Shown here in pieces: positions 35,156-35,820 of a DNA stretch of 64,000 nt. Under the pieces are notes generated by a model. The model saw only the letters and a program-made list of their open reading frames with translations, searched no databases and was not told the origin of the DNA. The number at the start of each line of letters is the position of its first letter. The stretch's first letter is position 1. The stretch is from Candidatus Altimarinota bacterium (lineage in GTDB: Bacteria; Patescibacteriota; Gracilibacteria; CAIRYL01; GCA-016699755): the NCBI GenBank assembly GCA_963664295.1, contig OY760935.1, forward strand, positions 384,001 through 448,000, given 5' to 3'. The position numbers were made by a program, and so were the translations under genes.

Positions 35156-35340
35156 TGGTTGCGGGGGTAGGAATTTAAAAACCTACTAGCTTCGCGAGTT
35201 ATGAGCTTGCGAATAACCCGATTAATACATATTTAATTTGGTTGCGGAGGTAGGAATTGATTGCTTGTCGTTTCGTGTCCTCGCCACAGCTTTTGCTTTG
35301 GCTCGGTCAGCTCCACTTTCAGCAAAACCTACGAACTTAT
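35156..35340 (-). repeat. Two degenerate copies of the tRNA-fMet 3' half
   Basis: aattcctac(c/t)ccgcaacca copies ending at 35156 and 35239; the second has a 66-nt T-loop insert. Confidence 0.8.
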
Positions 35341-35413
35341 TGTCACGGTCGCAGGCTCAATTCACGCCAAATTAATAAAATAACCTTATGGCTTCGCCAT
35401 AAGAATATTTTTT

Positions 35414-35488
35414 TGGTTGCGGGGGTAGGAATTGAACCTACGACCTTCGGGTTATGAGCCCGACGAGCTACCACTGCTCCACCCCGCG
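35414..35488 (-). tRNA. Initiator tRNA-fMet (CAT)
   Basis: Cloverleaf, C1:A72 mismatch, GGG/CCC anticodon stem, encoded CCA. Confidence 0.96.
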
Positions 35489-35820
35489 TCATTGTTTTGT
35501 TATTACTCTTTCTTCTGTTCGGTCTCATTTTATGAGCCCGCCTGACTAGACTCTCACTGCTCCACCCCGCGTCATTGTTTTGTTGTTACTCTTTCTTCTG
35601 TTCGGTCTCATTTTATGAGCCCGCCTGACTAGATTCTCACTGCTCCACCCCGCGTCATTGTTTTGTTGTTACTCTTTCTTCTGTTCGGTCTCATTTTATG
35701 AGCCCGCCTGACTAGATTCTCACTGCTCCACCCCGCGTTAATCTAACTTTATTTTTTCTTTCTTGGGGGCTCATTTGTTGAGCCCGACGGCCGATTGGCC
35801 TTAGCACTGCTCCACCCCGC
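35489..35820 (-). repeat. 83-bp tandem repeat (3 near-identical copies plus 1 diverged), each containing the tRNA-fMet 5' half
   Basis: cactgctccaccccgc(g) ends at 35571, 35654, 35737 and 35820; ttatgagcccg anticodon segment retained. Confidence 0.9.

Follow-up and report, generated by a model that had tools for sequence, protein, structure and literature searches.

The window, the whole 64,000-nucleotide stretch analysed here, belongs to a genome of 1.215 Mb assembled as a single contig with 33.5% GC. TGA is a stop codon in this host genome (60/476 long ORFs), and class-mates show in-frame TGA. Its size and these class-mates suggest that the genome belongs to Patescibacteria, probably to the class Gracilibacteria. 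The minus strand of the window carries one intact initiator tRNA-fMet gene with units made from parts of the same tRNA on both of its sides (Table 1).

Structure of the tRNA-fMet array

In transcription order, the locus opens with a promoter-like site. Four upstream units come next, the first of 84 bp and the other three of 83 bp, then the intact tRNA-fMet, and after it one unit of 175 bp and a last one of 83 bp. The presence of this array in the sequence was confirmed: six units, none of which contains a gene, flank a single intact tRNA-fMet. From the promoter-like site it is 96 nt to the outermost unit and 428 nt to the intact gene. Upstream, the array is bordered by a CinA-family gene; its other neighbour is a convergent ORF of 206 aa that has no match in Pfam. 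The tandem repeat obtained a TRF score of 520, and an Rfam scan of the array (to E 5) returned nothing but tRNA above the gathering score, with no homology to the enterobacterial TLR/RtT RNAs. The tRNA-fMet sequence alone folds into the cloverleaf with a probability of about 1.

The 5′ units share one design, which comprises tRNA nt 1–17, a substituted 3′ strand of the D-arm, the 5′ strand and loop of the anticodon arm, a short mirror closure and an A-rich tail. All four start with GCGGGGTGGAGCAGTG (tRNA nt 2–17), with T as nt 1 in unit 1, and all retain CGGGCTCA(TAA) closed by either ATGAG or TGAGCCC. Unit 1 differs from units 2–4 in its D-arm replacement and its tail: it has GGCC-AATC-GGCC in place of the D-arm 3′ strand, and its CGGGCTCA is closed by TGAGCCC and followed by an A-rich tail. 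On the other side of the gene, the 175-bp unit is composed of a hairpin, a 17-nt antisense T-arm, a 10-nt spacer, the T-stem 5′ strand in direct orientation, a 65-nt insert, and half of the T-loop continuing into the tRNA 3′ end with CCA. The terminator-like hairpin of this unit resembles the one behind tRNA-Gly(TCC), with 89% identity over 37 nt. The antisense arm contains two A>G changes, both of which are compatible with wobble pairing.

Table 1. Features of the tRNA-fMet locus (window coordinates)
Feature	Position	Strand	Remarks
Promoter-like site TGGACA-16-TAGTAT, with TG	35888..35916	-	consensus match only
5′ unit 1, 84 bp, outermost and most divergent	35738..35821	-	tRNA nt 2-17
5′ unit 2, 83 bp	35655..35737	-	tRNA nt 1-17, 14-nt replacement, CGGGCTCATAA closed by ATGAG, A-rich tail
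5′ unit 3, 83 bp	35572..35654	-	identical to unit 2
5′ unit 4, 83 bp, abuts tRNA-fMet	35489..35571	-	differs from units 2 and 3 at 2 nt
Intact initiator tRNA-fMet (CAT), encoded CCA	35414..35488	-	ARAGORN; Rfam 69 bits
Terminator-like hairpin, GCGAAGC-type loop, A-rich/T-rich flanks; start of 175-bp unit (3′ unit A)	35376..35411	-	sequence
Antisense copy of variable-loop end, T-stem 5′ strand and T-loop, 17 nt	35347..35363	-	15 exact
Direct copy of T-stem 5′ strand, 9 nt, TCGTAGGTT	35326..35334	-	in 175-bp unit
Hairpin-containing insert replacing T-loop, 65 nt	35261..35325	-	in 175-bp unit
3′-end copy A, 22 nt: T-loop half, T-stem 3′ strand, acceptor 3′ strand, CCA	35239..35260	-	one mismatch
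3′ unit B, 83 bp	35156..35238	-	degenerate copy of anticodon and T-arm in direct orientation; last 20 nt exact (35156-35175)
Antisense anticodon-arm 9-mer TCGGGTTAT in 3′ unit B	35213-35221	-	sequence

A preliminary description of this locus rightly placed an intact tRNA-fMet between two arrays. The four 5′ units with re-closed hairpins that it listed are present, but the 83-bp period assigned to them does not hold for the first upstream spacing, which is 84 bp. Its two 3′-half copies do end 83 bp apart; however, the first of these units is 175 bp long and is not a tRNA half. The 17-nt antisense T-arm copy in the 175-bp unit had been overlooked, and the last unit additionally contains a 9-nt antisense anticodon arm.

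Two other repeats were observed in the window. A 72-bp tandem repeat of 2.4–2.8 copies (631-830) probably lies inside a coding region, and a 127-bp unit occurs in 2.8 copies of 99% identity with a GTCAT-type hairpin (27560-27911); we take the latter to be REP-like.

The array is not conserved at related fMet loci: any unit was present at only 4/29 of them, and 25/29 were unit-free (four with short downstream flanks). The exact 5′ unit design was absent from class genomes (0/400), and the phylum matches to it (3/400) were ordinary intact tRNAs by sequence. No match to the 175-bp unit was found in class genomes at E 1e-6 (0/300). A CTRGACA motif precedes fMet by 44–100 nt in 10 relative loci without an upstream unit, and by 151 and 173 nt in two relatives with one pseudo-5′ unit. 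In the window, the promoter-like site keeps the usual spacing to the outermost unit. This pattern of promoter spacing indicates that the units were likely inserted between promoter and gene and are probably co-transcribed with it.

tRNA-end copies, inserts and antisense arms at other tRNA genes

Copies of tRNA ends occur at 20 of the 37 tRNA genes of the genome, upstream (5′ copies) at 8 and downstream (3′ copies) at 15, including three loci with both (fMet, Ser-GGA and Ser-GCT). A copy on the wrong side, that is, a 5′ copy downstream or a 3′ copy upstream, was found at none of the 37 genes. The 5′ copies mostly end within the D-arm, and the 3′ copies mostly begin within the T-loop. The phenomenon is not specific to fMet, and the TRF score together with the strict sidedness over 37 tRNA genes shows that the array is not due to chance. 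Antisense re-closure of the anticodon arm does not hold for 5′ units in general: it was clear at only 2/8 loci with 5′ copies (Ser-GGA and Ser-GCT), and fMet scored 7.5 and ranked 7th.

BLAST with masked tRNAs revealed one insert of 68–141 nt and 85–100% identity behind Gly-GCC, Ser-TGA, Arg-GCG, Ser-GGA, Gln-CTG and Ser-GCT, and every match of this insert lay within 260 nt of a tRNA. Other inserts are common to Leu-GAG, Met and Thr, and to tmRNA, Lys and Ser-GGA. The presence of the same insert behind six different tRNAs suggests that the inserts are mobile. Local slippage alone does not readily account for a unit whose body stays the same while the ends taken from a tRNA are exchanged.

Several other features of tRNA loci were observed. 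The repeat behind tRNA-Ile has 39 BLAST matches across the genome. A whole decayed tRNA-Gly copy lies 121 bp upstream of tRNA-Gly(GCC) (32591-32667, G000:C1, G000 being the host genome). At L129 (G000:C1:540366-545384), 101 nt of the tRNA-Gly(TCC) trailer are repeated 4.9 kb downstream with 93% identity, and the two repeats bracket ECF sigma, CARDB/DUF5667 and SLH genes; tRNA-linked units may bound cargo. Behind tRNA-Met (13634), the unit is followed by a C5 DNA methylase gene (L122:2583-4613), and a weak Tsp45I-like gene follows tRNA-Tyr at L131:460-2456. These two are probably restriction-modification genes at tRNA ends. The tRNA-Val(GAC) gene (G000:C1:10450-10526) has T instead of a purine directly 3′ of the anticodon, which is either real or a sequence error.

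The antisense T-arm of the 175-bp unit also recurs in the genome. An antisense arm with a score of at least 11 was found downstream of 8/38 tRNA/tmRNA loci, upstream of 0/38 and in 1/600 random windows, and the cognate T-arm was the best of 37–38 probes at all eight antisense-arm loci (8/8). When scored by identity only, the arm was found downstream of 14/148 tRNAs and upstream of none (host genome and fetched loci). In the host genome it lies at a distance of 47–96 nt, after a hairpin. Among 24 transitions in the antisense arms, 19 preserve G:U/G:T pairing (A>G 11, T>C 0, C>T 8, G>A 5); 18 transversions were counted. The nominal p value of this wobble bias, 0.007, overstates its significance, as the loci are not independent (the two Lys loci are related). 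The wobble-biased change points to pairing of the tRNA-sense strand, either as RNA or as single-stranded DNA. In folds with DNA parameters, the arm is predicted to pair in one of two ways, with the real T-arm or, extruding the insert, with both split copies.

When one genome per species was scanned for the exact pattern, 27 hits were obtained, and 12 of them comprised fMet, a hairpin and the antisense arm as judged by eye. Most of these 12 had the direct copy and the insert as well, and they came from Acidobacteriota, Patescibacteria, Alphaproteobacteria and Bacillota. The other 15 were, by eye, convergent tRNA genes or chance. Three family relatives, for which 30 loci of 109 matches were used, are far less affected than the host: the antisense arm was present at 2/35 tRNAs and the 5′ copy at none. 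In the last window unit and, judged by eye, in the units behind Phe, Glu-CTC, His and Lys-CTT, it is the D- or anticodon arm that is mirrored, not the T-arm. The pattern hits, viral contigs and class genomes contained no antisense-arm unit with a gene, and the viral contigs gave no match to the antisense arm. Six viral matches to the shared insert motif had unrelated flanks and no tRNA, and were discarded.

GIY-YIG nuclease cassettes at tRNA genes

Small GIY-YIG nuclease genes accompany similar units at other loci. In the host genome, two identical 321-bp cassettes (L032:1456-2025) precede tRNA-Pro TGG (C1:482635-482711), and each contains a palindrome-plugged tRNA-Pro 5′ half and an 82-aa GIY-YIG gene. 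All PF01541 matches of the host genome lie outside the window units. A GIY-YIG gene is present at 3/29 relative fMet loci (L009, L013 and L021). At both L009 and L013, plugged halves occur on either side, the 3′ half downstream and the 5′ half upstream. At L021, the order is a GIY-YIG 5′ unit, two 82-bp units that share its pseudo-half but have no gene, and the intact fMet; this locus is the closest analogue of the window array. Gene-less tandem 5′ units before fMet were also found on metagenome contigs (6 hits). Viral contigs yielded only four 15-residue matches to the Pro nuclease.

Like these cassettes, the window units contain part of a tRNA in which another sequence stands in for one arm, and they lie on the corresponding side of an intact tRNA. 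In contrast, they have neither a GIY-YIG gene nor the TCCCG/TCCGCC palindrome that occurs in nearly all nuclease cassettes, so the link between them and the nuclease is one of position and analogy. At L086, a 14-nt palindrome occupies the slot of the 14-nt replacement of the window 5′ units and is followed by CTCATAA-ttatgag and the GIY-YIG start codon. The two plugs agree in slot and length and differ in sequence, and the replacement in the window is possibly a decayed palindrome plug.

A GIY-YIG profile built from nine cassette proteins detected relatives in 114/151 class genomes. The examined homologues outside the profile alignment all lay within 350 bp of a tRNA (23/23); 21 of them had partial tRNA copies (18 upstream, 9 downstream, 6 both), and two had neither. 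We built a quick tree from 85 columns of 58 small GIY-YIG proteins: 28 were associated with a pseudo-half, 10 lay near a tRNA but lacked a pseudo-half, and 20 were not close to a tRNA. The pseudo-half label changed 3 times on this tree, as against 19.7 times in shuffles. The proteins clustered partly by tRNA type: the Asn-linked group comprised six rows from five families (SH-aLRT 99), and the only cassette nuclease of the host, at tRNA-Pro, grouped with other Pro-linked proteins. The fMet-linked nucleases, in contrast, were scattered on this tree and did not form one group. Among solved structures, those of UPF0213 proteins and of Slx1 come nearest to the cassette proteins. Another set of small GIY-YIG genes, UPF0213-like (L036-L065), was noted, often just behind tRNA or tmRNA genes after hairpin-rich spacers and without partial tRNA copies.

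Other mobilising enzymes were searched for in the host genome. It gave no PF01797 match for a Y1 transposase and no PF00078 match for a reverse transcriptase, and no resolvase was found. One Xer-like tyrosine recombinase, below the XerC/XerD cut-offs, is encoded away from the window units, and no integrase was present among 51 neighbouring proteins (47/111 listed ORFs and 4 window ORFs). A REP/RAYT or IS200/605 derivative was rejected because there is no Y1 HUH transposase and the unit copies lie at tRNA genes instead of being scattered between genes; retroelement-derived repeats were rejected because there is no reverse transcriptase. Given these negative results and the failure to find an antisense-arm unit with a gene, different drivers may act on the upstream and downstream units.

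Interpretation and relation to known systems

Our results favor, with some confidence, an array of six gene-less, tRNA-anchored selfish mini-cassettes that were serially inserted and then locally amplified. Insertion would have taken place at the D-loop for upstream units and at the T-loop for downstream units, each time leaving one intact tRNA-fMet, and units 2–4 would stem from a recent tandem duplication. Within this reading, we regard as evenly balanced the proposal that the upstream units are gene-less derivatives of a cassette encoding a small Slx1-like GIY-YIG nuclease. As the mobilising enzyme we infer this nuclease, which would nick the cognate tRNA gene, probably as folded single-stranded DNA, whereupon the cassette would be copied in through the shared tRNA end. 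For the 175-bp unit, we infer a folded single-strand attachment site by analogy with CTX phage at dif (PMC3089051): the antisense arm would act as a splint, holding either the pair of T-arm copies or the real T-arm in duplex form. The tRNA-templated duplication process raised in the preliminary description gains support from the genome-wide occurrence of the units, the apparently moving inserts and the nuclease-bearing relatives.

Neutral debris, that is, decayed tRNA duplicates and att scars expanded by slippage or unequal crossing-over, with the antisense arms as template-switch quasi-palindromes and no dedicated machinery, is an unlikely explanation. The identity of units 2 and 3 and the near-identity of unit 4, a period close to the length of a tRNA, the whole decayed copy before tRNA-Gly(GCC) and the 25/29 relative loci without units would all fit such an origin, as would the 18–19-bp 3′ repeat shared by the tRNA-linked repeats of E. 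coli as described in PMC8144298. It does not readily account for one insert standing behind six different tRNAs with its ends switched, for an antisense arm that lies at a similar distance after a hairpin and changes with a wobble bias, or for nuclease genes tightly linked to such units. An assembly artefact is far less probable. Units 2 and 3 are identical, so the copy number could be off, and the three best-matching sequencing runs come from one sample, possibly the source; however, the units differ among themselves, similar arrays occur in independent genomes and metagenome contigs, and the three runs contain 0.90–0.94 of the sampled words.

It is still less likely than neutral debris that the host maintains the units as RNA elements, with the leader units and the antisense arm competing with the cloverleaf, tuning tRNA-fMet maturation or yielding decoy RNAs. 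The units do lie between the promoter-like site and tRNA-fMet. In the RNAfold ensemble, the acceptor 3′ strand pairs with upstream copies, with P up to 0.96 for the 5′ copy of unit 4, and read-through into the antisense arm is predicted to abolish the T-stem; the wobble bias on the tRNA-sense strand fits RNA as well as DNA. The control of maturation by alternative 5′/3′ pairing, suggested in the preliminary description, is therefore physically possible in the fold ensemble, but a conserved role in fMet maturation is unsupported, because most relative loci are unit-free. The minimum free energy structure retains the cloverleaf, and P(acceptor) is at most 0.04 in 6/29 relative leaders, four of which are unit-free. 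The predicted capture of the acceptor by upstream copies is thus weak evidence for a switch, since unit-free leaders score equally low. Furthermore, the units are sporadic (4/29 loci, with the exact 5′ design and the 175-bp unit absent from class genomes), the antisense arm lies past a terminator-like hairpin, and many tRNAs are affected, not just fMet. The suggestion of tRNA mimics or decoys was not upheld, as none of the units is scored as a tRNA and none of the 400 class genomes contained the exact 5′ design. RNA-level pairing is possibly a side effect.

Among the closest known systems are the tRNA-linked repeats (TLRs) of E. coli (tyrT repeats, RrA/B/F), which have been known since 1978 and to which no function or origin had been assigned in the account we consulted (PMC8144298). 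One to five TLR units stand behind a tRNA or rRNA gene, each ending with an 18–19-bp copy of its 3′ end (PMC8144298), and the downstream units of the window likewise end in 22-nt and 20-nt copies of the tRNA 3′ end. In contrast, TLRs as described there are without upstream 5′ arrays, an antisense T-arm, a T-loop insert or a nuclease-bearing form (PMC8144298).

In integrative elements, the att junction is within the tRNA T-loop, as in the window units. Similar to the window, attL/attR fragments comprise an intact tRNA and a displaced direct-repeat fragment, and tandem accretion is possible (PMC9897764). The window differs from integrative elements in that its units are only 80–190 bp long, have no integrase or cargo and use both sides of the tRNA, and in that tRNA sequence is present in each of them also as a modified second copy and as a mirror copy. 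In the folded single-stranded attP of CTX phage/IMEX, two opposed target-like sites pair and one functional target is regenerated (PMC3089051). Two inverted target-like sites of the window are likewise predicted, with DNA parameters, to fold into a single-strand hairpin, whereas the target is the tRNA T-arm instead of dif, and no phage or replication gene is present.

The nuclease cassettes also have counterparts. Ssn GIY-YIG nucleases, which act on ssDNA, are single-domain proteins of about 90 aa whose genes are flanked by a cognate hairpin repeat (PMC11893778), and in this respect they resemble the cassettes; the main text of that paper does not mention tRNA once (PMC11893778). The host has a second small GIY-YIG gene, flanked by GTCAT-type hairpin repeats (L034, G000:C1:622611-622832), in a separate, well-supported clade that is probably Ssn-like, and the tRNA-linked proteins fall outside this hairpin-flanked clade in the quick tree. 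SegB of phages T4/T6 is likewise a free-standing GIY-YIG protein, of a kind enriched beside tRNA genes, and drives segmental amplification (PMC13096335). SegB is, however, a phage enzyme that amplifies whole genes (PMC13096335), whereas the cassette proteins are about 80 aa long, have UPF0213/Slx1 as their nearest structures and are accompanied by disrupted tRNA halves. For stand-alone bacterial Slx1-like nucleases, a role in repair has been predicted (PMC1564403).

The main texts searched, mostly from outside subscription journals, contained no description of arrays on both sides of a tRNA, of antisense arms specific to the cognate tRNA, or of plugged pseudo-halves accompanied by a nuclease; what they describe are the TLRs of E. 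coli and att-derived scars. We propose more tentatively, and as a doubtful possibility, that the array represents an undescribed class of self-guided mini mobile DNA on tRNA genes: units of 80–190 nt with direct and mirror copies of the target arm would adopt a branched single-strand fold and be mobilised in trans by minimal, tRNA-specialised Slx1-like GIY-YIG clades, the window harboring gene-less passengers on both sides of its tRNA.

If the units are nuclease-mobilised, self-splinting cassettes, the origin of TLRs and the role of Slx1-like proteins would become testable with one small protein and short oligonucleotides. If true, the Ssn type would gain a single-strand nuclease that is tRNA-specific and possibly retargetable. 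Such units would also account for pseudo-tRNA calls and tRNA hot spots in ultra-small bacterial genomes.
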